A stretch of DNA of 64,000 nt. It comes from an uncultured cyanobacterium. Its GTDB lineage: Bacteria; Cyanobacteriota; Cyanobacteriia; Cyanobacteriales; Nostocaceae. Location: NCBI GenBank assembly GCA_963706595.1, contig OY970166.1, forward strand, positions 5,472,001 through 5,536,000, written 5' to 3'. A program made the position numbers and the translations under genes. Under the pieces are notes generated by a model. That model worked only from the letters and a program-made list of their open reading frames with translations. It was not told where the DNA came from and searched no databases. The stretch's first letter is position 1; each line of letters starts with the position of its first letter. Below are positions 12,983-52,533 of this stretch, in pieces.

Positions 12983-13049
12983 GAATATAGCTTTTGCCAA
13001 TAGTTTTAGCACACAGCAGATTTGACAAAAGAATTACCAGATGACGAAT

Positions 13050-13143
13050 TCACCACTTTTCCCACACAGAGCGAAAATATCGGATCATGACGTAGATTTT
13101 TATGGTCATTTATATCTTCATAGCCCATGATTAATCCATATAC
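13050..13143 (-). pseudogene. IS1380-family transposase fragment
   Basis: Manual translation VYGLIMGYEDINDHKNLRHDPIFSLCVGK matches the recalled IS1380 GYED.NDH..LR.DP signature; no intact ORF. Confidence 0.7.
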
Positions 13144-13188
13144 ATCTTATTCTTATCATTGTTATTCCCTACTACTAAGTCTTGGAGT

Positions 13189-13229
13189 GTTAACCTCGTA
13201 ATGGCGTGATTCATCATTACGAGGTTAAC
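13189..13229. terminator. Strong hairpin downstream of the redox/carbohydrate cluster
   Basis: Perfect 15-bp stem GTTAACCTCGTAATG / CATTACGAGGTTAAC with 11-nt loop; no clear U-tract. Confidence 0.55.
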
Positions 13230-13289
13230 TGTCGTACTGTTTTCTTCTGCAAAGCCACTAAGACTCTGAAGCCGTTACACTGTTATTTC

Positions 13290-16085
13290 CTACTCAGGGT
13301 TTTTTCCTTGAGCAGTGTAATCTCCATGTTGTTGGATTAGTTTTGCCACTACTCCTGTCCAACCTGTTTGATGACTAGCCCCAATTCCCGCACCATTATC
13401 TCCATGAAAATATTCATAGAAGAGAATGTATTGATTCCAATTGGGGTCATCTTGAAACTTTTTAGTGCTTCCATAAACAGGTCGCTCACTTTGACCTTCT
13501 GTTTTTGGCAAGAAAATATTGATCAATCTTTGAGAAATTTCAGTAGACACTTCCCAGAGGTTCATCATCTTGCCTGAACCAGTCGGATATTCTACTTTGA
13601 AATCATCTCCTAAATAACGATGAAATTTTTGGAGTGATTCAATAATCAAGAAATTCACAGGCATCCAAATCGGACCACGCCAATTAGAATTGCCACCAAA
13701 TAGACCAAATCTCGATTCTCCTGGTTCGTATTCTACTAAAGGTTGCTCGAAACTGCCATCTTCCATTCTGATTTTAAAAGGTAAGAGATAAGGATGGGGT
13801 GGCTCGTGTGATTTAGATAAAGCTCGAATGCCATATTGTCCTAAAAATTCAGATTCATCGAGCATTCTTTTGAGAATTAATTTCAGTCTTGCAGGGTTGA
13901 CTAGGGATAAAGCTAATCCTCCTTCCATGAAATTACTGGTTGTGTTATCGAAGTAAATATTCTGGTTTTCGGTCAAATCTTTACGGTTCTTGAGGAACCA
14001 ATCCGCCCTTTTTTTGAAGTCAGAAGTCAAATATTTGTCTAGTGTTTCCTGATCAATCGCTTCCACTGCAAATAGAGGAATAAGTCCTACCATAGAACGG
14101 ACTTTCATCGAGAAAGAAAAGGGATCATTTCCTCCCTCTATGGCATTAGCAGGAAGTTTCAAAATGTCATAGAAAAAGCCATCCTTATCATCCCAAACAT
14201 CAACATCATTTCCTCCCAGCTTGTTCAGAGCTTCGGCAATCAACAAAAAGTGCTGGAAGTATTTTGAGGCCATATCGTCATAAACTTTTGAATTTGTATG
14301 GGTTTTGGCTAACTCTGTTGCCATCTTCAACAAGTTGAGACAAAACATTCCCATCCAGCTAGTACCATCTGATTGCTCAATACTAGCACCGGCAATTTTC
14401 AAATTACTGCGGTCAAAAACCCCAATATTATCTAACCCCAGGAAACCGCCTCCAAACAGATTGTTTCCATCTACATCTTTGCGGTTTATCCACCAAGTAA
14501 AGTAGAGGGATAATTTCTGAAATAGTTGTTCGAGGAATCCTCCGTCTGCATTGCCATACATTTTCTCTTCTATTTTATAAACCCGCCAAGCTGCCCAGGC
14601 ATGAACTGGAGGATTTACGTCGCTAAAGTTCCACTCATAGGCTGGTATTTGACCGTTAGGGTGCATAAACCATTCTCTGGTGAAGAGATATAATTGCTTT
14701 TTAGCAAATTCTGGGTCAATTAAGGCTAGAGGGATGGTGTGAAATGCCAAGTCCCAAGCAGCAAACCAAGGATATTCCCATTTGTCAGGCATGGAGATGA
14801 TATCTTCGTTAAACAGGTGAGTCCACTCACTGTTTCTACCAGAGTTTTTGCGTTGCGCTGGTGGTGGTGCGCCTGGGTCGCCATTGATCCAATCTTGCAC
14901 AACATAGTGGAAAAATTGCTTACTCCATAACATCCCTGCAAAGGCTTGTCGTTGGACGTTACGCATTTCAACTGGTAATTCTTCGCTGGGGGTGACTGCT
15001 TGATAGAATTGATCCGCCTCATTTTTGCGTTGTTCAAATACTGACCCAAATTCACTACCAAAGGGTGTTGCTAAATCGTCAATATCACTGAGGCGGAGTC
15101 GCACGATTTTGGTTTCCCCAGGGGCAAGATTTAAGCGATAATGGGGTGAAACTTTGGTTCCTTGTGGATGAGGATTTACTGCACCTGTTTTACCATTAAC
15201 AATATAATCGTTAATGCCATCTTTGACGTAAGAATCATTCTTTCCCCATCCAAACTTTTCTTTATTGGTTTCGTTTTCCGTGTACAGCATGGCATTGGGG
15301 GTTTCGCAATAAAGCCATTTCTTGACCTCCGGTTGCGCTGATTTCAGGTCAGTAAATTGAGCTTTAACTACCTTAAAATCTCCACTAGAGTTAACGCTTT
15401 CCAGGGAGGGTTTACCTTCCTCTGTGGGTCCCCAAGACCAAGTGTTACGAAACCAAAGAGTCGGTGCTAGATGCAACTCTTTAGCTTCTGGACCATGATT
15501 AACAACCGTGATTTGAATCAAGATATCTTCGGGAGAATTTTTGGCATATTCGACGAAAACATCAAAATAGCGGTTATCGTCAAATATCCCTGTATCCATC
15601 AACTCAAATTCAAAGGCGCGAGAATCTTGGGCTTTGCGGCGACCATTTTCCTTGACTAATTGTTCATAGGGAAAGGCATTATGGGGATATTTGTACAGCC
15701 CTTTCATGTAAGAGTGGGTGGGGGTACTATCCAAATAAAAGTAATACTCTTTGACATCTTCTCCGTGATTTCCCTCACTATTTGTTAATCCAAATAGCCT
15801 TTCTTTGAGGATGGCATCTTTTCCATTCCAGAGAGCGATCGCAAAACAAAGACGTTGGTGATTATCAGAAATCCCCATAATCCCATCCTCACCCCAGCGA
15901 TAGGTACGGGAACGAGATTGATCATGGGAAAAATAGTCCCAAGCGTTACCATCAGCACTATAATCTTCTCGCACTGTTCCCCATTGGCGATCGCTTAAAT
16001 AAGGACCCCACTGTTTCCAGTGTTTCTCCCGGTTGCTATCTTCAACGAGTCTTTTTCTTTCGACTGTGTCTTGAATTTTAATCAT
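13290..16085 (-). CDS. GH63 / MGH1-like glycoside hydrolase
   Basis: [66 protein letters not shown]; start ATG 16085 or TTG 16097. Confidence 0.9.
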
Positions 16086-16148
16086 GATTTTTGGCAATTT
16101 AATAAATGAACTGTTGGCAATAATAGTCTTAATTAGCTAGAGAAATCT

Positions 16149-17582
16149 CTAATCTAAACTCGTCAGAAAACTAATACTAGGAGCGAAGAAATATTCTCCA
16201 CCTTTCATTTTCACCCATAGCTCAAAATGATACTCCTTAGTTTCCTTTTCACCCCATTTTGTTGGCCATTTTGATACTACAGTTTTTGGATCACCCTTTG
16301 GTTTTCCTGGCTGACCAATTACCGGATCAAGTCCTACCCCAACATCAACAAAACGATCAGGATTTGCCCATCTTGACTGCATAAAATTAAATTGGTTTTC
16401 AATATCTGCTTGGAAACAAAGAAACAATAATCCTGAACCCTCTGTCGGTTTTGCAGTGGGATCATGTTCTCCATAACTCACTGCCCGTCGGGCAATGCGA
16501 TGATCTCTTTCTATCCTTAAAGCTTCATCAAATTCAGGAGCAGATTCAACCCGTCCTGTATCACCACGCGGGTTTGTTTTGCGAATATGGGCATGAAATG
16601 GACATTTTGTAGCTGCTATATCCTGATCATAATTAAAGATATTAGTTGGAGTTACAGCATAGGTAGGAATATCTGATTTAGTCACAGGAGTTCCATCCGC
16701 AAACCGACCCATCACCAAAGCCCCTGCCAAATCATTTTTGATGTTTAAAGTTTCAGCAAGTTTCTGTTGATCCTCATGAAATGCTTTAACATTTTGTTCG
16801 AGTTTTCGGTAAACTAAATAGCTACCATAACTATCCTCGGTTTTCCCATTGTAATCTTTAACGAGAATGATATCTAAAGAAGCTCTAGGGTCCCATTGAC
16901 TGAAATTGCAATCATTGGTTTGCGCTCTCATAATGTCTCGTTTGATAAATAAAGGCTGACTGACTCCATCCACAAACCCAAAATGTTCAATTATTTGTCC
17001 TGCTTTATTTCTGAGAATAAAGCCATCTTCTCGGTGAATAATCACAGCAACTTGACGCAAACTTTGAGAAATTTTATTGACGGTTTGCAACAAATTAATC
17101 AAGTTATCATCAGCAATCAATAGTAAGGCATGGATATCTTTTTGAAATCCTGCTTCCCAGTCTTCAACCTCCGGATCTTTTAAAAAATCTTGCCTGATTT
17201 GCTCGTTTTTCATCCCCATAGTAAAGGGCTGATCTTTCGGCACTTGAAAAGGCTTAAATCCTAAAGCCTCATAACCACGACGAGTTAGTAAAAAGTTAGC
17301 AAAAACCTTGCCGGAAATGCCTTCTTGTCGGTAGCATAAAGCCTCATCTGCTTGCTGTTTAGCTGATGTTACATAACATTTAGTAAAGGTTTGTATCCAG
17401 TTCTTAGCTTCAGCAACTTGTTCCGATTTCCATTCTAAAAAGAGATGCACACTGTAATCTCGTCCATGTCCTTTTAAAATGTTTCCCTGTAAGTCTTGCA
17501 GAAGTCCTTGATACTTGCCCGCATTTTCTGGATCAATTCCAGTTTCTGGAAGATTTTTTAAGTCTTCTTCTGTTAGTGCCAC
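16149..17582 (-). CDS. DyP-type peroxidase (AnaPX-like)
   Basis: EHFGFVDGVSQP (GxxDG), CPFHAHIRKTNPR (proximal His), RIARR, GGEYFFAPS. GTG start at 17582 after AGGTGG gives MALTEEDLKNLPE, closely resembling the Anabaena AnaPX sequence as I recall it. Confidence 0.93.
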   Translation of the reverse strand: MALTEEDLKNLPETGIDPENAGKYQGLLQDLQGNILKGHGRDYSVHLFLEWKSEQVAEAKNWIQTFTKCYVTSAKQQADEALCYRQEGISGKVFANFLLTRRGYEALGFKPFQVPKDQPFTMGMKNEQIRQDFLKDPEVEDWEAGFQKDIHALLLIADDNLINLLQTVNKISQSLRQVAVIIHREDGFILRNKAGQIIEHFGFVDGVSQPLFIKRDIMRAQTNDCNFSQWDPRASLDIILVKDYNGKTEDSYGSYLVYRKLEQNVKAFHEDQQKLAETLNIKNDLAGALVMGRFADGTPVTKSDIPTYAVTPTNIFNYDQDIAATKCPFHAHIRKTNPRGDTGRVESAPEFDEALRIERDHRIARRAVSYGEHDPTAKPTEGSGLLFLCFQADIENQFNFMQSRWANPDRFVDVGVGLDPVIGQPGKPKGDPKTVVSKWPTKWGEKETKEYHFELWVKMKGGEYFFAPSISFLTSLD

Positions 17583-17610
17583 AAATTTCCACCTTTTTGA
17601 TGACTGTTTT

Positions 17611-19575
17611 TTATCCAGCTTGAAGTTTGACAATTTTGGCTTTAGCAGGTTTGCCTATGTCATTGAGATAAAACATCATGTAGTATCCAGGAGGATAGAG
17701 ATTAGCGTTGTCAGGTGCTGTAAATTCCACTAATGAACTATCATCCGAGACCTTAGTGGGCAATTCTGCTAACCGTTGTCCATAATCAAAAGAATGGGTA
17801 ACAGCCCCCAATTTGGCAAGTACCAGCGATGGGTTTTTAGTGCCATTTTTCACCCTAATTGTCCCTGGTTTTCCATATTCAAGAGTGTCAGGAGCTTGAT
17901 TGATTTGAGGGCGATCGCCAGATTTAAAGAGATAGGGAGGACTAAAAATTTCTCCTTGCCAAATTTCCGCCGGCACAAAGGGTTCAGAATCTCCTTGAGC
18001 ATAATAATGTTGGGGATCTTTGTAAAAGGTGTCGAGATCAAATTCTTCAGGTTCTCCTGATTTATTGTGCAGCTTGGCAAAGGTAAAAAATGTTTGAGGA
18101 TCACCGAGAACATCCACACGAACTGTGCCGTCTTTTTTAAGTGCGGCTCGGTTGGCATTCCCACCCACAATTAACACACGGGCATCCGGTAGTAAAACAG
18201 CCCCATTATGGTACAGTCTGGGGAATTTGCCAGGGTTTAAGGACTTGGTTCTATAACCTGCGGTGGCCTTTTCATCTGGGGTCATGAGTAAGGGTTCGTA
18301 AACTGGCTGATATTCGGGATATCGCCCCCCATTAATCACTAAAATTTCTTTGGTGGGTAAAATGACGGCTTGGAGGTTAGCTCTGGGTTTATCGAGGAAA
18401 TGGTCAAATATTTCCCATTTACCAATCTTGTTATTACTTTTTTCAGTAGGTGCAATCCAATGTTGTAAACTGCTGGCTACCCTGACCTCTTTGGGAAATC
18501 CTGCTGTACTACCACCCCGTCCAAAACTGATATTGTTAGTACCGATAATGCCACCTAATAAAATGACATCTTCGGAATTAGGGACTTGTAGGGCAGTTCC
18601 ATAGGCTTTGTTGGTTTCTAAGCGATCTGGCCCTACTTCAAAACTAATGGAAATATTGCCATTATCTACTTCCTGAATACTCATTAAATAGCTTTTTTTA
18701 CTGAAATGGGGAACTGACACTCCGGCAATACCGGCTTCGTCTCCTGTAATCAGTAATCTGCCATCTTTTAAGGGAAACACGCGGGGATAAAGGTCAATGC
18801 TATCGTAAACGTCCTCACCTTCTACTTTGGTGTTGAAGGGACTGTTTTCAATCAGTCTGGGGTCAAAGTATTGGAGTTTCTCTGTTTTGGGATCGTAAAT
18901 TTCAATACTGGGGTTAATTTGGTTAGGTTTATCCCATTTTAAACCTGAAAAAATGACCACTTTCCCACTAGCGAGGGGAATTAAACTGGGATACCAACGT
19001 CCATCTTTTGTCTCCCCGATCGCTTTCCATTCTCCTGTTTGCCACTTGTACAGGTTAATCTGCTTGCTGCCGGTAAAAGCTCCACCTGGGTAATAACGTC
19101 CTGTTCCCCCGATGAATAGGACGTTACCATCGGCTAATTGAACATGACCCAGACAAAAGAGATCGTTAGTTGTCCCATTTTGTGAAGCTGGAGGTGAGGG
19201 AATACGTTCAAATTTTCCCGTTGCGGGGTCAAGTAAACCTGTATTATTGATGGCATTGTAGTTTTTTGGATCTACACCTTCTTTAAACTTATATTTTCCA
19301 TCTTCTTCAATGAGGGTGCTACGAAAACTACTACCATTGACCATTAAAACTTTGCCATTCGGTAGCACAATGGTATGGACAGACTGCATCCGATCTTCTG
19401 TCGGTGGCATGGGGATGGTTTTCCATTTTCCCATGGTTTCTTTGGGTCCCATCGCTGGACTGGCGATCGCTACATCCCAACCTAACAATGTTAGGCATAA
19501 GGACAGGAAAAACACCAAAAAAACTGAGACAATCTTGATGCCTTTGGGTAATGGTTTAACTATCATGATAATCAA
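17611..19575 (-). CDS. Secreted copper radical oxidase (galactose/glyoxal oxidase family, AA5; Kelch + DUF1929)
   Basis: Signal peptide ending AIA; DLFC (cofactor Cys), RWYPS (cofactor Tyr), RLYHN (axial Tyr and His), VTHS (His), PPGYYMMF. Confidence 0.9.
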   Translation of the reverse strand: MIIMIVKPLPKGIKIVSVFLVFFLSLCLTLLGWDVAIASPAMGPKETMGKWKTIPMPPTEDRMQSVHTIVLPNGKVLMVNGSSFRSTLIEEDGKYKFKEGVDPKNYNAINNTGLLDPATGKFERIPSPPASQNGTTNDLFCLGHVQLADGNVLFIGGTGRYYPGGAFTGSKQINLYKWQTGEWKAIGETKDGRWYPSLIPLASGKVVIFSGLKWDKPNQINPSIEIYDPKTEKLQYFDPRLIENSPFNTKVEGEDVYDSIDLYPRVFPLKDGRLLITGDEAGIAGVSVPHFSKKSYLMSIQEVDNGNISISFEVGPDRLETNKAYGTALQVPNSEDVILLGGIIGTNNISFGRGGSTAGFPKEVRVASSLQHWIAPTEKSNNKIGKWEIFDHFLDKPRANLQAVILPTKEILVINGGRYPEYQPVYEPLLMTPDEKATAGYRTKSLNPGKFPRLYHNGAVLLPDARVLIVGGNANRAALKKDGTVRVDVLGDPQTFFTFAKLHNKSGEPEEFDLDTFYKDPQHYYAQGDSEPFVPAEIWQGEIFSPPYLFKSGDRPQINQAPDTLEYGKPGTIRVKNGTKNPSLVLAKLGAVTHSFDYGQRLAELPTKVSDDSSLVEFTAPDNANLYPPGYYMMFYLNDIGKPAKAKIVKLQAG

Positions 19576-19628
19576 GTCTCTAAATCAGAATTTATGTCCA
19601 TAGCAAATAGTCATTTCCCTAATAAAAG

Positions 19629-20654
19629 TTAGCCATGCTTAAGAGCTTTTTTGATTTCCTTTTTGGTTGCTTGAATAGCTTTATCCGCAATATCGTAAGC
19701 ACTAGGATAGAAAGGATGGGGTTGATCTTCCCCTGGTATCCAAAATTTGCGTCGAGACAAGCGCAGAGAGTTAATAAATGGCGGAATAGCATTGAAAATT
19801 TCCACAGCAATTGGTCCTGTGTAAACTTCTAAAACTGGTTTGAGAAATGACTGCCAAGGTAGCCAACTGGTATGAAGTGCGCCACGATCAGGAGGTGAAA
19901 CTTGAATGTAATGTAGGCGGTTTTGTTTGGCTAAATCGGTAACTTGCTCTGAGAATTTTTCTGGTCCGTCTCCATCTAAGATTTCATGGGCGCTATCAAT
20001 GACAACCCCCACTTGTTTACTTTCTACGCCTTTGAGAAAGTTAATTACTTGAGATAATTTATTTGGTCCAGGAGTTTCCCAATGAGTAATAGGTTCAATT
20101 GCTAATTTGACCTTTTTTCCTTCAGCATATTTACCCAATTCATTAAGAACAGGTTGAGCATTTTGATAACGTACAGCTAAATGCTCCTGTAGTTGATCAC
20201 TCCAAATAGGATCATTAAAGTCTGTAGTTGGAAAAACACCATAGGGAATGACAATAGGACCCATCATAATTTCCCCTCCTAAAGCAGCCGTAATATCAAC
20301 TCTTGATTTCAGATATTCTAGGGCTTCTTGTCTTTGTTTGGGATAGGGAGAACTAGGATCAAAAGTTCTGGTTGCTCCAACATTGGTGGATATTTTAATA
20401 TCTGCTAAACCTTCGCCATCAAGATAGTGACGTAAATTTTGATAATTTTCCAAATCCTGGGCATAATTTTGAGGATTGGTTAAAGCAATGGGAAATTCAA
20501 ACCCAGTATAACCAAAATTCTTCAGTTCTTTGATATGTTTTACTACAGTTTTCCGATATTCTAAATTATCAGGGTTTAAATCTGTAGTAAACATGAAAAA
20601 GCTCAGGTAAATATTGGGCAAAGATGATGAGTTGTTCATTTTATTACGCTCCAA
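19629..20654 (-). CDS. Sugar phosphate isomerase/epimerase TIM barrel (ketose 3-epimerase-like)
   Basis: LAIEPITHWE, VVIDSAH, DRG, AVEIF metal-site pattern; start may be ATG 20639. Confidence 0.8.
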   Translation of the reverse strand: MERNKMNNSSSLPNIYLSFFMFTTDLNPDNLEYRKTVVKHIKELKNFGYTGFEFPIALTNPQNYAQDLENYQNLRHYLDGEGLADIKISTNVGATRTFDPSSPYPKQRQEALEYLKSRVDITAALGGEIMMGPIVIPYGVFPTTDFNDPIWSDQLQEHLAVRYQNAQPVLNELGKYAEGKKVKLAIEPITHWETPGPNKLSQVINFLKGVESKQVGVVIDSAHEILDGDGPEKFSEQVTDLAKQNRLHYIQVSPPDRGALHTSWLPWQSFLKPVLEVYTGPIAVEIFNAIPPFINSLRLSRRKFWIPGEDQPHPFYPSAYDIADKAIQATKKEIKKALKHG

Positions 20655-20698
20655 AAAACTCCCAGTAAACTTGAATTACAGTACGATATTTTCCCTGA

Positions 20699-20783
20699 TA
20701 TAGCGATTTTCATCCAAATGAGGTACACCGAAAAAAATTAACCGCAGATAAATTTGTCCCTCAGCAGACTAGAAAATGCTATA
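20699..20783. mobile_element. Short MITE (TATAGC...GCTATA family)
   Basis: Imperfect TIR tatagcgattttc / gaaaatgctata. Confidence 0.6.
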
Positions 20784-20795
20784 TCTCTGCAAGAA

Positions 20796-21188
20796 TTATA
20801 AAGGTTTCTTGTTCCAAATTTGACGGTCAATTTTCCAGATTCCTGCATCTTTTTTCATTAACCATAAAGCCCGAAATTTTACCTGTTTTGCCGGACTACC
20901 ATCATGAGGACAAATAGTTGCGATAGAGATCCCAATGACATAACCAAAATCACCCATCACTTCAATTTCATCGGCAGTAAAAATTGGATCAATATCTTGG
21001 GTTGCAATACTTTGGGCAAATCCTTCTACAATATCTCCCCTACCACAGCGATCATCTACATCCGGTGCCATCCAAAGTGCATCTTCGGTATACATATCAC
21101 TATAACCACAAAGATTTCTAGTTCTTACATTCTCGGCATAGGTTTCTTCAAACACTTTTCTGATTTCGTCTTTATCGTGAGAATACAT
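20796..21188 (-). CDS. NTF2/SnoaL-like (DUF4440-type) protein
   Basis: 130 aa with YTEDALWMAP, GRGDI and WKIDRQIWN patterns; RBS AGGAG. Confidence 0.8.
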   Translation of the reverse strand: MYSHDKDEIRKVFEETYAENVRTRNLCGYSDMYTEDALWMAPDVDDRCGRGDIVEGFAQSIATQDIDPIFTADEIEVMGDFGYVIGISIATICPHDGSPAKQVKFRALWLMKKDAGIWKIDRQIWNKKPL

Positions 21189-21260
21189 ATCTAAACTCCT
21201 AATAATTGTTGTTGAGTTGTGTAGAAATAGTTGTCTTGGGCAGGAAAATTTACTATTTAA

Positions 21261-21306
21261 TATTTACCAAAAGTCAGTAGATAAAATTTCCGACTTTTAG
21301 TAAATA
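21261..21306. terminator. Intergenic hairpin between the iolE-like and SnoaL-like genes
   Basis: tatttaccaaaagtc ... gacttttagtaaata inverted repeat. Confidence 0.45.
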
Positions 21307-21311
21307 AAAAA

Positions 21312-22427
21312 TTACAAGCCAGTCACTCCACGGAGATACCGTCGGGACATGAGGGCATATTCTAAAGGCTCACGTAAAGGCTTAATTTTGGTATTGCTGG
21401 GATCTTGTTCTGCTTCTACCATTAACCAGCCTTGATACTTAACTTCGGCTAGTTTAGTTAAAATGCTCTTAAAGTCAATGATTCCATTTTTATCCCCAGG
21501 AACTGTAAAAACTCCAGAGCGAATTGCACTTAAAAAGCTGAGTTGCTTTTGTTTTGCTTCGTCCAAGATATTTTGACGAATATTTTTGAGGTGAACGTGC
21601 TTAATGCGGCTACCATAGGTGCTAATCAAATCCAAAATTTCATCTTGGGTAACACCTGAATAGTAAAGATGGCCAGTATCAAGTAGTAGGTTCACATTGT
21701 GATCTTTTGTTCCTGCCATGAGACGATCAATATCTGCGCGGATTTCTACTCCCGTGCCGACGTGGGGATGGTAACACAAGATCATGCCATTGGCAAAGGC
21801 TTGATCTCCTAGAGAATTTAAGCCATCAATCAAGAGTTGCCATTGTTCATCAGTAAACTGGGGACGATTATTTAAGGGTTCAATGGGTTGTTGATGGACA
21901 GCCCCTCCGAGTTCGGCAACGACAATTGCTTTACTATCAAAATTCTTCATGAACGCCATCTGATCCTCGAAGATTTTTTGGCTATCTTCTTTCGCTCCGA
22001 TGGTGAAGAAAGTCCCAACCCAGGGTTCAGAAATTGTTAAACCCCTAACTTCTAGGTCTTTTTTTAATGTAGCGATGTCTTTGGGAAATTTAGGAGCGCC
22101 TTGAAGACCTTGAAACCCTGCTAGGGCAATTTCACTGATAATCTGTTTGTAGGAGATGGGAGGATTGAGATCCATTGTGAGATCATCACTGTTACTCCAA
22201 CCTGTAGGGGTAATACCTAAACGGACTTCTTCTGGATTAAAAAGGGGAGTGTTAGGAACTCTTTTGACTTCAGCATTAGCAGGAAGTGTGCTAGTGATTC
22301 CCATGAGAATCACTATGAATAGGGAAATCAATAAACGACTGATTTGTTTACAAAGGGATTTTATCCCATTGGGAAAAGTCGCAGAAATTTGTACTTGTGT
22401 TTTGATTTTTTCGGAGCTTTGTATCAC
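21312..22427 (-). CDS. myo-inosose-2 dehydratase (IolE)-like protein with N-terminal signal peptide
   Basis: LGITPTGWSNSD, CYHPHVGT, LLLDTGH, HVHLKN, GVFTVPGD, WLMVEAEQDP; preceded by a hydrophobic segment ending PANA. Confidence 0.85.
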   Translation of the reverse strand: MIQSSEKIKTQVQISATFPNGIKSLCKQISRLLISLFIVILMGITSTLPANAEVKRVPNTPLFNPEEVRLGITPTGWSNSDDLTMDLNPPISYKQIISEIALAGFQGLQGAPKFPKDIATLKKDLEVRGLTISEPWVGTFFTIGAKEDSQKIFEDQMAFMKNFDSKAIVVAELGGAVHQQPIEPLNNRPQFTDEQWQLLIDGLNSLGDQAFANGMILCYHPHVGTGVEIRADIDRLMAGTKDHNVNLLLDTGHLYYSGVTQDEILDLISTYGSRIKHVHLKNIRQNILDEAKQKQLSFLSAIRSGVFTVPGDKNGIIDFKSILTKLAEVKYQGWLMVEAEQDPSNTKIKPLREPLEYALMSRRYLRGVTGL

Positions 22428-22494
22428 GAGAATTCCTCTGTTTTTTTTATTCTGAACAATTTATTTCTTTACTTAGGAATTAACCATTTTTGTG

Positions 22495-22624
22495 TAAGTA
22501 AGTCGGCGTGAAAATTTCGATGTATGTCATTGCGAGTGGAACGCAGTGGAATGAAGCAATCGCAAGGCTTTTGGGAGTTTTACATTCTGTTACATAATTG
22601 GGTTTATTTGCGCCGACTTACTTA
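22495..22624. mobile_element. MITE with 14-bp perfect TIRs
   Basis: TAAGTAAGTCGGCG ... CGCCGACTTACTTA. Confidence 0.8.
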
Positions 22625-22638
22625 ATGTTGCAGGAGTA

Positions 22639-22774
22639 TATAGCAATCCTATTTGAGTTGTGAGAAATCCGGGATAAGTGATTTACTCAGGTGAGGATAC
22701 TCAAAACCTTAGCCAGATAGACTTACGGTGATACCATCTATGCTCTGGTTTGATCATCAAATAGGGTTGCTATA
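22639..22774. mobile_element. MITE (TATAGC...GCTATA family)
   Basis: TATAGCAATCCTATTTGA ... TCAAATAGGGTTGCTATA. Confidence 0.8.
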
Positions 22775-22826
22775 CCAGAAAGATTTTCCTAACTATCCCG
22801 TTCCTGACGATATGTTAACTATGAGC

Positions 22827-23507
22827 CTATTGATAAGCCCCAAATTGAGCGACATTTCCGTTATATACGGTATCATTAGGCATTCTGGCACGAAACAAAT
22901 CGGCATCAATGAAGTTAGTCTTCGTCAGAGTAGCCCCTGATAATCTGACATTTCTCAGGACAGCATCAGCAAAATCTGCACCATCTAACTTAGAGCTAGA
23001 TAGAAATGCGTTGGTGAAATTTGCTTCCTTGGCGATCGCATCGGAAAAATTTGCACCAGAGGCGATCGCATATTCTAGAACAGACCCTGTGAGATTCGCC
23101 CCTGACAAGTTAACTCCTGCCATCTCTGCATTACCCAATTGAGCATTTGTGAGATTGGCGTTAGTTAAAATGGCGTTGTTTAACCTGATTCCTAAAAGGC
23201 TGGCTCCCGATAGATTCGCTCCTGTCAGATTTGCTTCATCTAGCTTGGCTTCATTCAGCAAAGTATTCGATAGATTAGCCCCTGTGAGATTTGCTTTCAG
23301 GAGAGCGCTACCATACAAATCTTTATTCGATAAATCCACTCCCGACAGATCACAGCTATTACACTCGTTTGTTTCAAGTAAATGAGCAAGAGCAAGACGG
23401 CTATTAGTAGCAACAAAGGCATTAGCAGGTAAACTAAACAGCGTTAAACTCAGAACAATTGTCAGAACAAAAGCAGAAAGTCCACGAAACCAAAGTTTAA
23501 TATTCAT
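22827..23507 (-). CDS. Exported pentapeptide-repeat protein
   Basis: Signal peptide ending PANA, CxxC cap (CNSC), A(D/N)LxG repeats. Confidence 0.9.
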   Translation of the reverse strand: MNIKLWFRGLSAFVLTIVLSLTLFSLPANAFVATNSRLALAHLLETNECNSCDLSGVDLSNKDLYGSALLKANLTGANLSNTLLNEAKLDEANLTGANLSGASLLGIRLNNAILTNANLTNAQLGNAEMAGVNLSGANLTGSVLEYAIASGANFSDAIAKEANFTNAFLSSSKLDGADFADAVLRNVRLSGATLTKTNFIDADLFRARMPNDTVYNGNVAQFGAYQ

Positions 23508-23550
23508 GTTGTATCTCCATTAAAATTGTTTTCTAGCAATTAAGTTGTGA

Positions 23551-24039
23551 TTAACTCAAACTAACTGAAGGAGGCTCACTCCAAGTCCCATAACCAGGTG
23601 CTTTCGCTCCAGGAGGATTAACCCCAATAGCCCGCCAGACAAGTCCTTCGGGATAGGCTTGGGGACTGGGAATAAAAGGGCTATTTGTTTGGTCAATTCC
23701 ATACCAGGACTCCAAAGACTTGGGAAGTTTATCCCAGGTAGCTGTATACCACAGCTTGATGATGTTGCGAGCAACAGGTCCTAGTGTGGCAGAAGTGAGA
23801 ATTTCCGAACGTAATCCCTCAGTTAAAATTGTGGGATTATGTTTCTTGTTTGCACTCTTATCAAACTTATGAAAGGTTTCTAGCAATTCTGTCAATATTT
23901 TCTCACCAATCATGTTCAGAACGGTGTCAAAGTAAAGTTCAGCTTGTCCAGTTCCTTCAAGGTCAAACCGAGAAAATCCTGTTACCTCTGCTGATAAATC
24001 CAGGAAATACCCCATGAATTCAGGTGTCTTAATACTCAC
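23551..24039 (-). CDS. Sorbitol/gluconate dehydrogenase small (gamma) subunit-like protein
   Basis: FLDLSAEVTGF, ARNIIKLWYTATW, AYPEGLVW and YGTWSEPP patterns typical of proteins accompanying GMC flavoproteins; GTG start with GGAGG RBS. Confidence 0.65.
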   Translation of the reverse strand: MSIKTPEFMGYFLDLSAEVTGFSRFDLEGTGQAELYFDTVLNMIGEKILTELLETFHKFDKSANKKHNPTILTEGLRSEILTSATLGPVARNIIKLWYTATWDKLPKSLESWYGIDQTNSPFIPSPQAYPEGLVWRAIGVNPPGAKAPGYGTWSEPPSVSLS

Positions 24040-24106
24040 TCGTTATTTACCTCCACAAAGTTTCTAGGTTTTTATTTCTAGGTTTTTGAGTCCCAACTTT
24101 TGCTCT

Positions 24107-25222
24107 TTACTCAAACTTATAAATCGGACCTGCATTAACACCACTCAGTCCAGGAATGGGGTTACGAATCAGACTATTAGCTAATTCCTTGAGTCGGAAC
24201 ATACTTCCCACCGCAGGAAGCAACTGTTCAGGATGACCATTAAAGGAATATTCAATCTCTGCAAGAAACCTGCTGTAAGCTTGCTGGAACTCCAGTGCGT
24301 GAGCATATAATTCTGAATCTGCGTCACAATAATTTCTCAGCTTACTCAGAGTCAGATTCTCCATGACGGGATAAACAGCGCCCCAATCTACAGTAATATC
24401 TTCGCCTGTAGGATAATCAGGCTGATCTGAGTTCATTGGATCTTCCTTGTCTATCACATAGTAGCGACCCTTCAGTAGTTGCTGGAAACGATAGTAATGA
24501 GAAAGTTCTTTTTCAGAATCATAGATCGTTGTAGTTCCAGACCCTTCACCTTGGGTTTGAATTATATACAATGCTTTGATAGCAGAGTCAAGATCCGTCA
24601 CCTTGACGATATCTCCCGCACCATCATAGTAATATTCAGGGGTAATTTGCTTTTTAGGATCACCAATGAAGAGATTCTTACCTTCTTTCTTATAGTGTTT
24701 ATCGAGTGCCTTTAAGCCCCGAATCACCTCTGTATAGAACAATCCAATGGTGTGATAGCTCAGGTTGTCATTTCTACCAGCAAGTCTTAAAAAATTGTGT
24801 CTTCTTGTTTGTCTGGTTCGAGATTCTACTAATGGTGCATTCTCATCTACATGATGAGAACGTTCAATCTTGAGAAATGTCTCTATTGTTTCTTGGGAAA
24901 ACTTGCCGACATTAACTTCAAAGTCATCTTCTCTCGTAGGTAAGTAAGTCGGGTATGTGGGAACAAAGTCAGGATTGGTCAAAACTCCTTGGATATCTCC
25001 TCCCACCGCATTAAACACATTGGCTACTAGAGTGAGATGGAGCATTTCCTCCACAGCAATAGTGCGAATAAAGTGGAAAGCCTCCAGATTTGAGCCTGGC
25101 TTCAGGGAATAAAGGGCAGTCAGATAAGGGGGAAGGGTTGCGTGTTCTATCATCATGCCCTGGATGAGATAGTAATGCAGGTCTTCAACCGTTGTAATCA
25201 ACTCTAAACTATCAATCATCAA
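24107..25222 (-). CDS. Ferritin-like diiron protein (VioB C-terminal-like family)
   Basis: IEHATLPPYLTALYS, AVEEMLHL, QGEG, SHYYRF. Confidence 0.85.
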   Translation of the reverse strand: MMIDSLELITTVEDLHYYLIQGMMIEHATLPPYLTALYSLKPGSNLEAFHFIRTIAVEEMLHLTLVANVFNAVGGDIQGVLTNPDFVPTYPTYLPTREDDFEVNVGKFSQETIETFLKIERSHHVDENAPLVESRTRQTRRHNFLRLAGRNDNLSYHTIGLFYTEVIRGLKALDKHYKKEGKNLFIGDPKKQITPEYYYDGAGDIVKVTDLDSAIKALYIIQTQGEGSGTTTIYDSEKELSHYYRFQQLLKGRYYVIDKEDPMNSDQPDYPTGEDITVDWGAVYPVMENLTLSKLRNYCDADSELYAHALEFQQAYSRFLAEIEYSFNGHPEQLLPAVGSMFRLKELANSLIRNPIPGLSGVNAGPIYKFE

Positions 25223-25283
25223 ATACCTCTGCTGACAATATTTTCAAAAGTTGTATAATCAGTGCGCTTTGTTGTTTTTACTT

Positions 25284-27141
25284 TTAGGCATAGACAAGTT
25301 TAGATGCAATATCTAATTCTTTAAGCATCTCCTCAGTAGCCATGTAAGTTAGAGCAGCAATACTCAATGTAGTATTAGAACTACCAATGGAGGGCATACT
25401 TCCTGCACCAACCATGTAAAGATTCTGATGATCCCAAGAACGCATATATTTATCAACAACCGAGTTGTATTTAGTCGTTCCCATGACGTGAGTTTCCGGA
25501 AAAGTGATTTCCTCCTCGGAACCAGTAGCCTTCACCCTCATACTCAAAATAGGCCGGGTCTGTGTCATCGTAGTGGGTATGATCTTCCGCACCTAAATGA
25601 TTGAAAATAGTCTTGGAGAGATTTCGGGCGTAAGCAAAGGTTTTTTTGCAATAATCAGGTAGGTCAAAATGAATCACGGGACGATAATTACCCAATTGAT
25701 CTTTATATCGGGGATCAATGGTAACTCGATTATTGTAATCGGCGGGTAACTCGCACATGAAGGCTAATAGTAATTGCCGTGATATCTTGGTGATTAGTTC
25801 TTTACGTAGTTCAGCACCATACATATTGCCTTTTTCTACAGCATCTCTCACTATGTCAGTAGCGCCTGTTCCTGACCATCCCCAACCATCATTATGGATA
25901 TCCATCGCAAATGTGCATTGGTTGTGACGAAACTTACCTTTACGGAAAGTCCCGATTCCTGATGTCACTAGGGGTCCTCGCATTGTCCCAGTCACTTCCG
26001 GCATCAAAGCCCAAGCTAAGAGGAAAGGATGATCCATAAGATTGCGTCCCATCAGATCATTACTACTCTTCAAATCGGAAGCAAGCATTAGCTTGGCATT
26101 TTCGACTGCATGGGCAGCTAAGACAAATAAAGTACCTTTGGCAATACCAACGGTATGGGTAGGAGAGTTCTTATCTTGATAGTGCTTGTAGTGAATAGCG
26201 GTAACACGACCGTTATCGGGATCAACTTCTACCTTATAGGCTACAGCCTGGGCAAGTAAATCTACTCGATCAGGAAAAGCTATGGTATTTAAGGTTTTGC
26301 GGGCATCATACTTCGCTTGCACTGGACAGATAGGTACACAGTTCGCGTTACCTTGGCAACGTTCCCCATACTCTACAGGTTTGACACTGGCCACGCCATC
26401 AGGAACAAAGCGATTATCAGCTTTATGTCCGTACTCGTTGTACTGGGGATTAGGTATACTATTGCGACCTTGGGGAAAGGTACTGAGTTCTAATTTAATA
26501 GTCTCGCCCTCAAGTTCGACGGTAGCTCCATTCAGTCCCTCAGTAACTTTCTTATCCAAGTAAGAAGGAGGAAGCTCAAGCATAGGGAAAACATAGCCAT
26601 CTTTAAAGGGGACACCTAGACCTTTTTGTCCTTCTACGTCTCCAGAAACCCCCATTTCATACTCCGCTTGGCGGTAGTAGGGCATGATTTCTTCATACTT
26701 GATTGGCCAGTCAAGACCTTTTCCATATTTAGTTTGTAATTCAAAATCTTCGGGTAACATTCGGATGGTTTTCCCTTCCCAGTGCATGGTAGTTCCACCC
26801 AATACCCTTGTATAAGAACCACTCAGAGGTAATGGTCCTTTTTCTTCAAAATAATGATTAGCGCCATCAGTGGGGCTAAGGGCATTGCGGTTTACGGGAT
26901 AAGGGGAGTTGGCATTTTTGTCTACTGCGCCATAGAAGGTATCAACGTGACTTTGAAAGCCCTCAAGGGTTAAACCATAACCAGTTCCCGCTTCCAGGAT
27001 TAAAACTCGCTTTCCCTGTTCACTAAGTTGTTTGGCAACAATGGCTCCAGCTACTCCCGCTCCGACTATGACTACATCGTAAAAGGTTTGAGAAACAGTC
27101 TCACAAGTGACTAATTTTATCGTAGTCCGACTTTGGCTCAT
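25284..27141 (-). pseudogene. GMC-family FAD oxidoreductase with a +1 frameshift at 25493-25495 (618 aa if repaired)
   Basis: GAGVAG Rossmann motif, GGTTMHW, CQGNANCVPICP, GRNLMDH. Deleting one A from TCCGGAAACTCAC joins NHFSG to THVMG...NLYMVGAGSMP...NTTLSIAAL. Confidence 0.85.
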
Positions 27142-27288
27142 ATATTACTCCTTAGCACGTATTTAATTGACCCAATGGTGTCAGGAACTTTCCCGTCAGT
27201 AATGTATCAAGCATCAATGTGGTTAGTCAACACTTAGTAGATAATTGTTTTATACACTTGATTGTAAAGGATTTGTGGCTCAACAATG

Positions 27289-27350
27289 TATTTAATATTG
27301 GGTTAATATCAGTAAATACTTGGTTAATACTTAGTAAATGTTCCGTAATT
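27289..27350 (-). promoter_or_regulatory. Helically phased direct repeats upstream of the cluster
   Basis: Minus strand ATTTACTA-agt-ATTAACCA-agt-ATTTACTG-at-ATTAACCC-aat-ATTAAATA, 10-11-bp period. Confidence 0.45.
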
Positions 27351-27443
27351 TTTCTGAATAAATCTGTTGAAATATAAGCAAATTGTGCGATTTTAACGGG
27401 ATTATTGAATATTTCATAAGCTTTATTGATATTTTAGTGGTAA

Positions 27444-27473
27444 TTAGTAATATTTAGTAATATTTAGTAATAT
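27444..27473. repeat. Three tandem 10-bp repeats (TTAGTAATAT)3
   Basis: Direct reading. Confidence 0.85.
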
Positions 27474-27768
27474 TATGCCAAAAATCTTAGTATTCTGCAT
27501 GAAAAAACAGAAGATAAGCTAAAGATAAGAGTAATCTTCGGAAATATGTGTATTGTTCAGTATTTGCAGTTAGATTTCTCTCTGCCAGTGAACTATAATG
27601 TCAGTATTATTGCTATAAAGTTAGAAGCAACTTGAAGATTAGTATAGTAACCGGATTTAATGTATGAGTTAATTGACGTAGAGATAGTGGGAAAAGCAGG
27701 ATAGATAACTACTGAGTTTGGTATGGACACACCACACCAGCTATAAATAACCAAATAGGAGTCCTAAT

Positions 27769-28470
27769 ATGTTACAAAATTTTTCTGAAGAAACAAGAGC
27801 CTTATTCCGTAAAGAAATACAAGAATATGGATTTATGAAGGATGAATTAGTTGGTAGAGACATTGACAGGGAAGTTTACGGAGTGAATATTGCCTGTGCT
27901 TGGCCTCTTCCTACGGAAATCAGGGAAATTTATGAGGAAATGTCTGAGAAATTGCAAGAATTAGAATGTGCTTATATATATCCATATACCCAAACACACA
28001 TTACAATCGTAACAGTTATTAACTTTAAAAAAAGGCTGAATAAAATTAAAAAATACTTAGATGCTGAGATATTAAAACTGTTAAAGATGAGAATAGAAAA
28101 TATAGTACAGCACAAGCCAATTAAAATATTTATTGATTCTCCAGTATTATTAAGGTCTGCTGCATTCTTCCCCGTATACAATCCTGGTGGAGAAATATAT
28201 GAAATACGAAAAGAAGCTCTGAATATTTTAAAAGGTGATAACAGAGATTATGATTTAGATACGCCAATATCCATTCATTCAACAATTTTACGCTTCCAGG
28301 AAGTTCCTACAGATAGTGAAAAGTTTCTTCATAGATTTGAAGAAATTACCAAAAATTTCTCTGTGGTGGAAGGAATAGTGAGGGAAGTGTATGTAACGGA
28401 GGAGTTAAAGCCTTACATGAAACAGGGAAGTATTTTAGAAAAAATTGACTGCGGAAACTTGGCTTTGTAA
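27769..28470 (+). CDS. 2H phosphoesterase superfamily protein
   Basis: Two Hx(S/T) motifs, THITIV and IHSTIL, about 90 aa apart; very AT-rich; RBS AGGAG. Confidence 0.65.
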   Translation: MLQNFSEETRALFRKEIQEYGFMKDELVGRDIDREVYGVNIACAWPLPTEIREIYEEMSEKLQELECAYIYPYTQTHITIVTVINFKKRLNKIKKYLDAEILKLLKMRIENIVQHKPIKIFIDSPVLLRSAAFFPVYNPGGEIYEIRKEALNILKGDNRDYDLDTPISIHSTILRFQEVPTDSEKFLHRFEEITKNFSVVEGIVREVYVTEELKPYMKQGSILEKIDCGNLAL

Positions 28471-28700: not shown

Positions 28701-28819
28701 ACCTGGCATCGAGCTATTTTTGCAGAGGGCTACCCCAAAACTATCGTCGCCGCAGCAGCGTTTCACCTCTGAGTTCGGGAAGGGATCAGTGTGGTTCCAC
28801 CGCGCAATAAACACCAGGA
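28701..28819 (-). rRNA. rrf: 5S rRNA
   Basis: TCCTGGTG...CCGAACTCAGAGGTGAAACG...GATGCCAGGT; ends approximate. Confidence 0.95.
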
Positions 28820-28945
28820 AAGAATTCAAAATTCAAAATTCAAAATTCAAAATAGAATCAGGAATTTTCAATTCGAGGGTTTCAGAAACCCTGAAGGCTG
28901 CACAGTAACGCGAAATAATGAGCAATTCACACAAGCAATGATCTG

Positions 28946-31773
<2,828 letters not shown>

Positions 31774-32124: not shown

Positions 32125-33612
<1,488 letters not shown>

Positions 33613-33795
33613 TTGTTGTGCTTAGAGTTTTATCCGAAACAACAAGTTGTTTCAGAATCCTGTGAATTTTTTTGATTAACGTTTGGGTTTTTTTCCCAAA
33701 CTAAATATTCTTGACGAGGATTGGTTCTTATTTAGCTTTCAAAGTATTTTGTTTTCACGGTTCAGGTGTTGCGGCTCTCGCCTTGGCACTTATTT

Positions 33796-52523: not shown

Positions 52524-52533
52524 AAAATCACCT

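Follow-up and report, generated by a model that had tools for sequence, protein, structure and literature searches.

Sugar dehydrogenase complexes that combine flavin adenine dinucleotide (FAD) with a 3Fe-4S cluster are the basis of direct-electron-transfer glucose and fructose biosensors, and to our knowledge all known examples are periplasmic and rely on a cytochrome c subunit. Among them are the FAD-dependent glucose dehydrogenase (FAD-GDH) of Burkholderia cepacia (6a2u/8grj) and the fructose dehydrogenase (FDH) of Gluconobacter japonicus (7w2j/8jej), which are membrane-bound, and whose catalytic subunit of the GMC family has an FAD fold. In complexes of the FAD-GDH type, according to the available part of PMC9727119, the 3Fe-4S cluster is the primary acceptor of the FAD electrons, a small 'hitch-hiker' subunit serves export by the twin-arginine translocation (Tat) route, and the third haem region of the triheme cytochrome c contacts both the catalytic and the small subunit. 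In this paper, we describe a ten-gene cluster at positions 13290-27141 of a 64,000-nucleotide stretch of DNA (hereafter the window) from an uncultured cyanobacterium of the family Nostocaceae (assembly GCA_963706595.1, contig OY970166.1), which encodes a cytochrome-less and, by prediction, cytoplasmic variant of this dehydrogenase class next to two TIM (triosephosphate isomerase) barrels of keto-sugar-converting types. We tentatively favour, short of real confidence, the reading that the cluster specifies an oxidise-epimerise-dehydrate route, which would turn a glucose unit into a reactive keto-sugar product by way of a new three-protein dehydrogenase, and in which the last steps and a further oxidation would, in cyanobacteria, take place outside the membrane.

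Several other described systems resemble parts of this cluster. The 3-keto-glycoside pathways of Agrobacterium and Bacteroides, which oxidise, eliminate and hydrate, and C-glycoside deglycosylation likewise combine a sugar dehydrogenase with two xylose-isomerase-like TIM barrels. The fungal pyranose oxidase/aldos-2-ulose dehydratase route to cortalcerone and the conversion of glucose to kojic acid follow the same logic as the route proposed here, one oxidation and subsequent dehydrations giving a reactive pyranone, but the fungal enzymes are unrelated: a H2O2-forming oxidase and a propeller/cupin dehydratase, as opposed to a 3Fe-4S dehydrogenase and TIM barrels. In Streptomyces lividans, a H2O2-making copper radical oxidase, GlxA, is paired with DtpA, a H2O2-using dye-decolourising peroxidase (DyP), as described in the available parts of PMC8197335 and PMC4736821.

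The window spans positions 5,472,001-5,536,000 of a single-contig genome of 5.57 Mb. As an earlier note made from the letters of the DNA alone had it, ten co-oriented genes run from a GMC flavoprotein gene to a GH63 gene; all ten open reading frames (ORFs) lie on the minus strand in the order that had been given, and Pfam and NCBIfam, from which gene identities are taken unless another source is stated, agree with the identities. In the order of transcription, the features are as follows.

25284..27141 (frames 25471-27141 and 25284-25592), minus strand: GMC protein, predicted catalytic subunit of a FAD/3Fe-4S dehydrogenase (GMC_oxred_N 30.2 bits, GMC_oxred_C 46.1 bits)
24107..25222, minus strand: ferritin-like protein (PF12902, E 4e-67)
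23551..24039, minus strand: small subunit of 162 amino acids with the FdhS fold as modelled (no Pfam or NCBIfam match; assigned by fold comparison)
22827..23507, minus strand: predicted exported pentapeptide-repeat protein (PF00805, E 2e-35)
22428..22826, no strand: intergenic gap of ~400 bp, likely boundary of two transcription units
21312..22427, minus strand: IolE-family AP_endonuc_2 TIM barrel with a signal-like N-terminus (TIGR04379, 307.2 bits against a cut-off of 290)
20796..21188, minus strand: DUF4440/SnoaL (NTF2-like) protein (PF14534, E 3e-13)
19629..20654, minus strand: second AP_endonuc_2 TIM barrel, ketose-3-epimerase-like (2qw5, E 1e-179)
17611..19575, minus strand: predicted exported copper-radical-oxidase-like protein of the GlxA/galactose oxidase type (PF09118, GO-like E-set, 79.8 bits)
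16149..17633, minus strand: DyP-type peroxidase, orthologue of AnaPX (Alr1585) (5c2i, E 3e-230)
13290..16097, minus strand: GH63/MGH1-like (alpha/alpha)6 glycoside hydrolase, 935 amino acids (PF22422 75 bits, PF03200 25.5 bits)

The closest relatives of these genes are found in Dolichospermum and Anabaena isolates, the epimerase-like barrel being 96% identical to that of Dolichospermum sp. UHCC 0259. For comparison with other genomes this barrel was used as bait in one representative genome per species (185,579 species), which yielded 80 loci, 61 cyanobacterial and 19 other, each with up to 10 kb on either side and referred to below by L numbers where necessary; cluster genes in them were scored by tblastn with all the window proteins.

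The GMC reading frame of the window is interrupted, as detailed below, and the class of its product is best seen in the intact 618-residue orthologue of a close relative (L005:3727-5583). In PDB searches this protein matches the alpha subunit of the B. cepacia FAD-GDH (6a2u_B) with E 2e-71 and the FDH large subunit (7w2j) with E 3e-59, pyranose oxidases being far more distant (~E 1e-8); in NCBIfam the C-terminal piece of the GMC protein has a weak pyranose oxidase match (E 6e-5). A cysteine motif, C262-x5-C268-x3-C272, is invariant in 60 GMC orthologues and aligns with the Cys-rich stretch of 6a2u_B, and G27, G29 and G32 of the FAD-binding fold are invariant as well. The cysteines would thus be the ligands of a 3Fe-4S cluster, as in the FAD-GDH/FDH type, and judged by sequence the GMC protein is the catalytic subunit of a dehydrogenase complex of that type and not an oxidase. 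The cysteine that makes the alpha-gamma disulfide in the B. cepacia enzyme (residue numbering from the available part of PMC9727119) is replaced by glutamine in the cluster GMC. Outside the cyanobacteria a second GMC gene is present in 13 of the 19 loci, with the same Cys motif in all four second copies that were checked, and a Lipocalin_5 protein is encoded in 12 of the 19.

The second component of the complex was recognised by its fold. By sequence, the 162-residue protein gave only noise against the PDB. Its AlphaFold2 (AF2) model (pLDDT 86.2) has as its top three Foldseek matches chain B of the fructose dehydrogenase entries 8jej, 8k6j and 9jqa, and VIA-align superposes it on these chains with Z 9.4-9.6 and a root-mean-square deviation of 3.0-3.6 Å over 110-116 residues, the following row having Z 2.8. 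As modelled, therefore, the protein is shown to have the fold of the gamma/FdhS small subunit, which the cluster shares with FDH. Among the 120 homologues listed it is almost always named 'hypothetical protein', and the remaining cluster genes bear generic names. What sets the cluster apart from FAD-GDH and FDH is that these carry a Tat signal on the small subunit and have a triheme cytochrome c, whereas the cluster has neither. No Tat-like N-terminus was seen on the small subunit or its orthologues. In a hydropathy test on N-termini, by which export was judged throughout in place of a signal-peptide predictor, none of 50 cyanobacterial orthologues had a hydrophobic N-terminal segment, and of 17 others only one had. 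The CxxCH motif is absent from the ten proteins and from every open frame of at least 60 amino acids between 13000 and 28000, and no cytochrome family occurs in the related loci annotated with Pfam. The cluster complex is therefore a cytochrome-less variant of the known dehydrogenase class, predicted to be soluble and cytoplasmic rather than periplasmic, with a PF12902 protein encoded next to it.

This ferritin-like protein is the candidate for the missing electron-transfer partner. Its gene adjoins the GMC gene in nearly all loci, and it is fused to the small subunit in Sorangium (L050:2442-4070, 542 amino acids) and in a cyanobacterial metagenome-assembled genome (L075). From the Sorangium fusion, the published contacts of the electron-transfer subunit and the lack of any other acceptor we infer that it occupies the place of the triheme cytochrome c. 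Eight residues (E26, H27, E58, E59, H62, E120, E226 and H242) are invariant in 64 sequences, and the AF2 model (pLDDT 88.4) is a helical bundle whose only clear PDB neighbour is the uncharacterised 3hl1 (CC_0557); the other rows of the fold search have E >0.3, and the Dps-like and thioferritin dimetal proteins among them are weakly similar (Foldseek E 0.4-0.6). The protein is hence described here as a candidate dimetal electron-accepting subunit; of the earlier wording, 'ferritin-like diiron protein', the ferritin-like part stands with the PF12902 match, and the diiron part was not borne out, the conserved Glu and His residues indicating a putative metal. When a complex of the GMC and ferritin-like proteins was predicted, the three runs scored 0.10, 0.52 and 0.46 (median ipSAE 0.46) versus 0.00 in all three controls, with a contact agreement between runs of at least 67% and a partner pLDDT of at least 79. 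The method had been calibrated on 157 solved complexes, 116 of which reached the mark, and on 215 mismatches, of which 2 did; among values up to 0.60 only 18 solved complexes passed, both passing mismatches falling there as well; the prediction thus lends weak support to an association of the two proteins.

Full-length matches of PF12902 number one or two per genome in the five genomes searched, all of them within cluster loci, and of 14 control genomes only that of Caulobacter has the family; we know of no established function for it outside VioB-type enzymes. A partial match (45.5 bits, profile positions 6-106) lies outside the cluster in one of the five, Nostoc sp. C117 (locus L088; G005:C1:1906495-1906806), in a 727-residue frame, and may represent a different architecture of the ferritin-like domain. 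A wider claim, that PF12902 proteins are a new redox partner for FAD/3Fe-4S sugar dehydrogenases, with a dimetal centre that would reduce O2 or H2O2 or oxygenate the keto-sugar, and that together with the two barrels they would yield an undescribed reactive metabolite from storage glucan, we regard as doubtful, though not idle.

The same protein also invites another explanation, in which the dehydrogenase and its ferritin-like partner form a redox safety valve that burns sugar from storage glucan and reduces O2 or H2O2 to water, as a sink of the rubrerythrin or flavodiiron kind, while the barrels recycle the keto-sugar, the DyP removes peroxide and no special product is made. The weak resemblance of the fold, with its conserved Glu and His, to Dps-like and thioferritin dimetal proteins is in line with this, as are the lack of another visible acceptor for the dehydrogenase, the presence of a DyP in the cluster and the linkage of storage-glucan hydrolases. 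Such a valve would, however, leave unexplained the exported dehydratase, the pentapeptide protein and the H2O2-producing oxidase, as well as two dedicated barrels kept at 49-96% identity across phyla, and its patchy occurrence, given below, would be odd for a general stress function; we consider it improbable.

That the genes belong together is evident from their distribution. Of the cyanobacterial loci, 38 have flanks of 8 kb or more to either side; 29 of these contain the whole series of nine from GMC to DyP and 20 contain all ten genes, so that the co-conservation which the earlier note had left to be checked was indeed found. Outside the cyanobacteria, a core of five genes (GMC, ferritin-like, small subunit, IolE-like and epimerase-like) is present in 13 of 14 loci with the same extent of flanks, and a shorter Terriglobia locus has the same five; in 18 of the 19 non-cyanobacterial loci oxidase and DyP are missing beside the core. 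The hosts of this core belong to Actinomycetota, Pseudomonadota, Myxococcota and Acidobacteriota and include Streptomyces, Solirubrobacterales, Kineosporiaceae, Azospirillum, Sorangium and Methylovulum. The order of the genes is shuffled: oxidase and DyP are inserted between the GMC and ferritin-like genes in Moorena and Symploca (L037 and L038), GH63 lies upstream of GMC in Microcoleus-type loci, and in seven loci (L011, L013, L014, L022, L032, L039 and L040) the block from GMC to the pentapeptide gene, with the ferritin-like and small-subunit genes, is inverted relative to the block from IolE to GH63. Linkage is kept throughout, with three fusions in its support, and the neighbourhood is not due to chance.

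The cluster nevertheless occurs in few genomes. Of 301 cyanobacterial genomes sampled, 9 encode the ferritin-like protein, the genome of the window among the nine; in the family of the window the figure is 6 of 37, this genome excluded. A quick maximum-likelihood tree of 60 GMC sequences separates the cyanobacterial from the other sequences (SH-aLRT 99), and within each side it is unlike the taxonomy, Dolichospermum and Anabaena grouping with marine unicellular and Spirulina-type cyanobacteria and Sorangium being nested in Azospirillaceae. Given this patchy occurrence and the mismatch between tree and taxonomy, the cluster appears to be an accessory element that has moved between lineages.

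The two barrels of the core indicate what may happen to the oxidised sugar. The IolE-like protein, besides passing the TIGR04379 cut-off, matches 9zmu (E 1e-58) and 3cny (E 1e-52) in the PDB; its match to 8ro4, a 2-hydroxy-3-keto-glucal hydratase, is partial (E 1.5e-7). Its N-terminus is hydrophobic in 51 of 55 cyanobacterial versus 1 of 17 other orthologues. The second barrel is an orthologue of 2qw5, an orphan and uncharacterised PDB entry; in a profile search it matches ketose, tagatose and allulose 3-epimerases with E 1e-13 to 1e-5 and IolI with 7.5e-5, and its best NCBIfam models, IolO (47.1 bits) and psicose 3-epimerase (36.6 bits), stay far below their cut-offs, both 300. E187, D220 and E285 are invariant, and H248 is present in at least 90%, of 71 sequences; with their epimerase-like spacing these residues may correspond to the Glu-Asp-His-Glu metal-binding and catalytic tetrad. 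Going by their relatives, both barrels would belong to enzyme types that remove a proton beside the carbonyl of a keto-sugar or keto-cyclitol.

Ordinary inositol catabolism would be the first thought for an IolE homologue, and automatic annotation would indeed call this gene 'myo-inosose-2 dehydratase' and give the others generic names. As in the iol pathway, the cluster has a barrel that passes the IolE model and another that is weakly IolI-like; but of iolG, iolD, iolB, iolC and iolJ it has none, its IolE-like protein bears a signal for export in cyanobacteria, and its links are with glucoside hydrolases, not with inositol genes. In the whole genome the best IolD score was 212 bits against a cut-off of 715 and KduI/IolB gave no match, iolG, iolC and iolJ being outside this genome-wide search. 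Ordinary inositol catabolism is excluded by a genome without IolD and IolB. Taken with its companion, a chance adjacency of unrelated genes, against which the linkage across five phyla, the rearranged order and the three fusions all speak, it is scarcely credible as an account of the cluster.

A cyclitol could be the substrate without being catabolised in the ordinary manner. The GMC protein might oxidise inositol to an inosose, which the IolE-like barrel, the IolI-like barrel and the NTF2-like protein would convert into a polyhydroxybenzene or quinone; a pigment or cross-linker would then arise through coupling of this compound by a DyP, a laccase or enzymes of the yellow type. The IolE hidden Markov model above its curated cut-off and the weak IolI match fit such a route, inosose minus two waters is by our own arithmetic tetrahydroxybenzene, and some clusters contain a multicopper oxidase (5 of 61 cyanobacterial loci), an MRJP/yellow-like protein (8 of 61) or a protein of the glyoxalase/dioxygenase fold (seen in L043, the one locus that was checked). 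On the other hand, inositol synthase, inositol phosphatase and inositol transporter are all missing from the 18 related loci annotated with Pfam, and the recurrent glucoside hydrolases would have no role; the IolD and IolB results also count against it, although they bear on catabolism only. The aromatisation of inosose, one of three chemistries that had been suggested for the locus, is weakened accordingly, neither the IolD and IolB searches of the genome nor the related clusters having revealed anything that makes, releases or uses inositol, and we consider this route very unlikely. The multicopper oxidase, MRJP and glyoxalase-fold genes, scattered as they are, together with DUF4904 in 18 of 61 cyanobacterial loci, do hint that the product is oxidisable, possibly enolic or phenolic, and an aromatic or quinone end product stays possible with them.

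The genes that travel with the cluster hint at where the sugar comes from. Accessory genes shared between phyla are of a single kind, (alpha/alpha)6 glucoside hydrolases, namely GH63, GDE (of the amylo-alpha-1,6-glucosidase type) and GH15 with glucodextranase-like or trehalase-like N-domains; 43 of 61 cyanobacterial loci and 14 of 19 others have at least one of the three. In Nostoc-type loci the GDE gene lies within the cluster, between DyP and GH63; the genome of the window has its GDE-type amylo-alpha-1,6-glucosidase, a 667-residue frame, away from the cluster (G000:C1:1434128-1435243). The GH63 protein scores above the Pfam cut-off for PF03200 (22.4) and matches PF22422, yet no PDB sequence matches it at E 1e-5, so that it is distant from all solved members; its gene accompanies the cluster, in variable position, in 34 of 61 cyanobacterial loci. 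Its identification as the glucosylglycerol hydrolase GghA (Slr1670) was considered and dropped, Slr1670 being an 885-residue protein of the GHL5 type according to the available part of PMC5002435. Searches of Pfam and NCBIfam found no transporter, kinase, aldolase, NAD-dependent reductase or iolB, iolC or iolD gene inside the cluster, in agreement with the absences that had been noted before, and transporter, kinase and aldolase are equally missing from the 18 annotated loci. With hydrolases linked and transporters lacking, the sugar would seem to come from an internal alpha-glucoside or storage glucan, and the view that the locus does not serve simple sugar utilisation is strengthened.

Non-hydrolytic breakdown of 3-keto-glycosides has to be weighed here. 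The GMC protein would then be a glucoside 3-dehydrogenase, and the barrels a C-O lyase and a 2-hydroxy-3-keto-glucal hydratase, which would recycle a hydrolysis-resistant alpha-glucoside, for example trehalose, for its carbon. Two AP_endonuc_2 barrels beside a sugar dehydrogenase whose family includes glucoside 3-dehydrogenases, the partial match of the IolE-like protein to 8ro4 and the GH15 proteins with a trehalase-like N-domain in related clusters all accord with it. Against these stand the absence of a 3-keto-glucose reductase or other NAD(P)-dependent reductase, of a kinase and of a transporter from the cluster and the annotated loci; the IolE-like protein itself, which matches IolE (E 1e-52 to 1e-58) far more closely than it does the hydratase; a second barrel which is epimerase-like and unlike the known lyases; and, unlike in the described pathways, a 3Fe-4S dehydrogenase with a ferritin-like partner. 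A lyase route would moreover be redundant with the hydrolases of the same clusters, and in cyanobacteria export is predicted for the IolE-like protein but not for the dehydrogenase. We consider this explanation unlikely, though it deserves serious attention.

In the cyanobacteria the core is joined by pentapeptide, NTF2-like, oxidase and DyP genes. None of the 19 other loci has the pentapeptide gene; the last three genes lie beside the core in one methanotroph as well (L054). The DUF4440/SnoaL (NTF2-like) gene was scored in 54 of 61 cyanobacterial loci and in a single one of the 19 others. Signal-like hydrophobic N-terminal segments are found in 47 of 50 pentapeptide and 53 of 55 oxidase orthologues of cyanobacteria, and with the IolE-like protein this makes the three exported proteins that had been proposed. 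We therefore place these three outside the cytoplasm, and all other cluster proteins inside, as a prediction from their N-termini. In Moorena (L037:8217-9806) and Symploca (L038) a single exported protein of ~530 amino acids combines the pentapeptide protein with the IolE-like barrel, which suggests that the two act as a pair in the window too. The oxidase has GlxA (NF052501) as its best NCBIfam match, at 175 bits short of the cut-off of 800; C141, Y195, Y455-H456 and H594 are invariant in 56 sequences, and may correspond to the Cys-Tyr cofactor and copper ligands of galactose oxidase, a motif correspondence and not a structural alignment. Its earlier assignment to the AA5 copper radical oxidases is putative, with the domain matches and this motif as its basis.

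AnaPX, a structurally solved peroxidase, has dye peroxidase activity in vitro. As the earlier label 'AnaPX-like' implied, the DyP matches 5c2i, the Alr1585 protein, over residues 19-493 with E 3e-230, followed by the DyP2 of Amycolatopsis (4g2c) with E 5e-79, and it scores 111 bits with TIGR01413, above the cut-off of 100.5. Across 52 sequences D222, part of a GxxDG-like motif, is invariant, as are several His and Arg residues; these would have the roles usual for such residues in DyPs. Its N-terminus is hydrophobic in just 2 of 51 orthologues, so that 49 of 51 are without signal peptide. Amycolatopsis DyP2 couples phenolic O-glycosides oxidatively in vitro, according to the available part of PMC11107159. 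In Kamptonema an extra and longer DyP-like gene (L043:11158-13167, 669 amino acids) lies between the epimerase-like barrel and the oxidase, besides the DyP of the AnaPX type.

The pairing of oxidase and peroxidase recalls the GlxA/DtpA pair, and the cluster might accordingly remodel an envelope or sheath polysaccharide in the manner of the GlxA/CslA/DtpA system of Streptomyces, with the oxidase acting on a surface glycan, the DyP supplying or using H2O2 or maturing the oxidase, and the cytoplasmic genes making or recycling the sugar. The functional pair is on record in the sources cited above for Streptomyces (PMC8197335 and PMC4736821, as far as available), GlxA is the best NCBIfam match of the oxidase, three proteins are exported, and the cluster is found mostly in filamentous or sheathed cyanobacteria. 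Yet the two systems differ: in the cluster the oxidase and DyP genes are adjacent, the DyP is of class V (AnaPX type), without Tat signal and predicted to be cytoplasmic, whereas the oxidase is exported, and there is no cslA-like synthase. A DyP lacking a signal peptide would not meet the exported oxidase, glycosyltransferases and synthases are missing from the cluster and from the related annotated loci, the core manages without oxidase and DyP in nearly all non-cyanobacterial loci, and the GlxA score is far below its cut-off. Sheath remodelling, another of the three suggested chemistries, is therefore quite unlikely, though it may still apply to the exported half of the cluster.

The oxidise-epimerise-dehydrate route, which we favour, would proceed as follows. 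Acting on an alpha-glucoside or alpha-glucan, the linked GH63, GDE or GH15 hydrolase would release a glucose unit, to be oxidised by GMC, small and ferritin-like proteins acting together as a soluble cytoplasmic dehydrogenase. In this complex a carboxylate/histidine metal site of the ferritin-like protein would receive electrons from the 3Fe-4S cluster, and O2 or H2O2 would be their final acceptor. The epimerase-like barrel would epimerise the keto-sugar next to the carbonyl, and dehydration by the IolE-like barrel would yield a reactive compound, such as a dicarbonyl, an enone or a product of the pyranone type, instead of a central metabolite. Three proteins, namely the dehydratase, the pentapeptide protein as its partner and the copper radical oxidase, would in cyanobacteria act outside the cytoplasmic membrane; completion and further oxidation of the product would occur there, and H2O2 would be released. 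The AnaPX DyP would remain in the cytoplasm, as would the NTF2-like protein, and would consume H2O2 or couple the product. Of the three chemistries of the earlier note, that leading to a pyranone or reductone thus fits best, with glucoside hydrolases, one oxidation and two keto-sugar barrels. To its picture the present analysis adds the 3Fe-4S dehydrogenase without cytochrome, the five-gene core in four other phyla, the patchy and apparently mobile nature of the cluster and the GlxA/DtpA precedent. Its view that the pathway is undescribed still holds, the literature searched, in which subscription journals were mostly outside coverage, containing no description of the cluster or of a pathway for this gene set.

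Several points weigh against the favoured route. The split of the cyanobacterial core across the membrane is its least understood feature, as it requires an exporter or a diffusible intermediate, and the cluster encodes no exporter. By its model score the IolE-like protein is a true IolE, and this favours a cyclitol over a pyranose. The metal site of the ferritin-like protein is putative, deduced from conserved Glu and His residues, and the nearest named relatives of the protein are VioB-type enzymes (NCBIfam E 0.008), which contain haem and serve to couple substrates, not to carry electrons. The prediction of the complex is weak, one of three runs having scored only 0.10. A hydrolase is missing from 18 of 61 cyanobacterial and 5 of 19 other loci, in part on account of short contigs. 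The survey used a single bait gene, so that its counts tell what accompanies the epimerase-like barrel, and not where the other genes occur without it. Finally, we know of no substrate, product or activity demonstrated for any cluster protein besides AnaPX.

In the strain of the window the route may not operate at all. One extra base near position 25493 breaks the GMC reading frame, the remainder of the gene being intact; this base is absent from the close relatives L003 and L005, both with an uninterrupted frame of 618 amino acids, and from contigs of four environmental runs, two of lake-water DNA and two of RNA libraries. None of the sequencing runs searched contains the strain of the window (best share of words 0.17), and a recent pseudogene and an assembly error are therefore not distinguishable. 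With a one-base frameshift in the dehydrogenase gene, the pathway may be inactive in this strain unless the extra base is an assembly error.

As regards expression, RNA-library contigs from close relatives overlap parts of most cluster genes; these relatives are 90-95% alike, and transcript ends, strand and level are not readable from the contigs, which give a weak hint that the cluster is expressed. Intergenic distances range from -23 to 141 bp, with the ~400 bp between the pentapeptide and IolE-like genes as the exception, a gap whose length differs among environmental relatives. Together with the block inversion described above, this gap suggests that the cluster likely consists of two transcription units with their boundary at that point. 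A scan of 12900-28000 for promoters and terminators was uninformative, with 37 promoter-like sites versus 38.0 expected and 6 terminator-like sites versus 11.8 expected. Upstream of the cluster, the stretch 27529-28000 has zero depth in two RNA libraries and is covered in DNA runs, again a weak hint.

The cluster is flanked on one side by a convergent gene of the cbiG/cobJ type (11246-12982) and on the other by a plus-strand ORF of 233 amino acids (27769-28470) with no Pfam match, beyond which lies an rRNA operon. This operon is complete (16S, 23S and 5S; 28701-33614, minus strand) and is upstream on the strand of the cluster, from which it is separated by the ORF and a spacer of ~630 bp. Elsewhere in the window, a divergent pair at 1163-2329, consisting of a peroxiredoxin-type gene (Redoxin/AhpC-TSA, minus strand) and a gene for a FUR-family regulator (plus strand), resembles a peroxide defence pair under PerR/Fur control. 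On the plus strand at 34415-42439, two ABC exporter-type genes with fused membrane and ATPase domains, an AraC-family regulator gene and a gene for a TonB-dependent receptor with an AMIN domain make up what looks like a siderophore or metal-uptake island. The G+C content falls to 0.35 in 50001-54000, compared with ~0.42 in the window, and the GC skew reaches -0.23 at 52001-54000.

A soluble version of the FAD/3Fe-4S dehydrogenases with a ferritin-like acceptor would be a new design of electron transfer. Should the wider claim made above for PF12902 proteins hold, the cyanobacterial cluster would be the first physiological context known for the AnaPX DyP, and likewise the first outside Streptomyces for a copper radical oxidase from bacteria. 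A 2021 review (PMC8197335, available part) holds that the physiological roles of DyPs remain unclear, and the fixed partnership with an oxidase, a sugar dehydrogenase and two keto-sugar barrels makes the role of AnaPX testable. A function for the cluster would also annotate many genomes, in which the small subunit is listed as 'hypothetical', and would give a meaning to 2qw5 and 3hl1, so far orphan entries of structural genomics.

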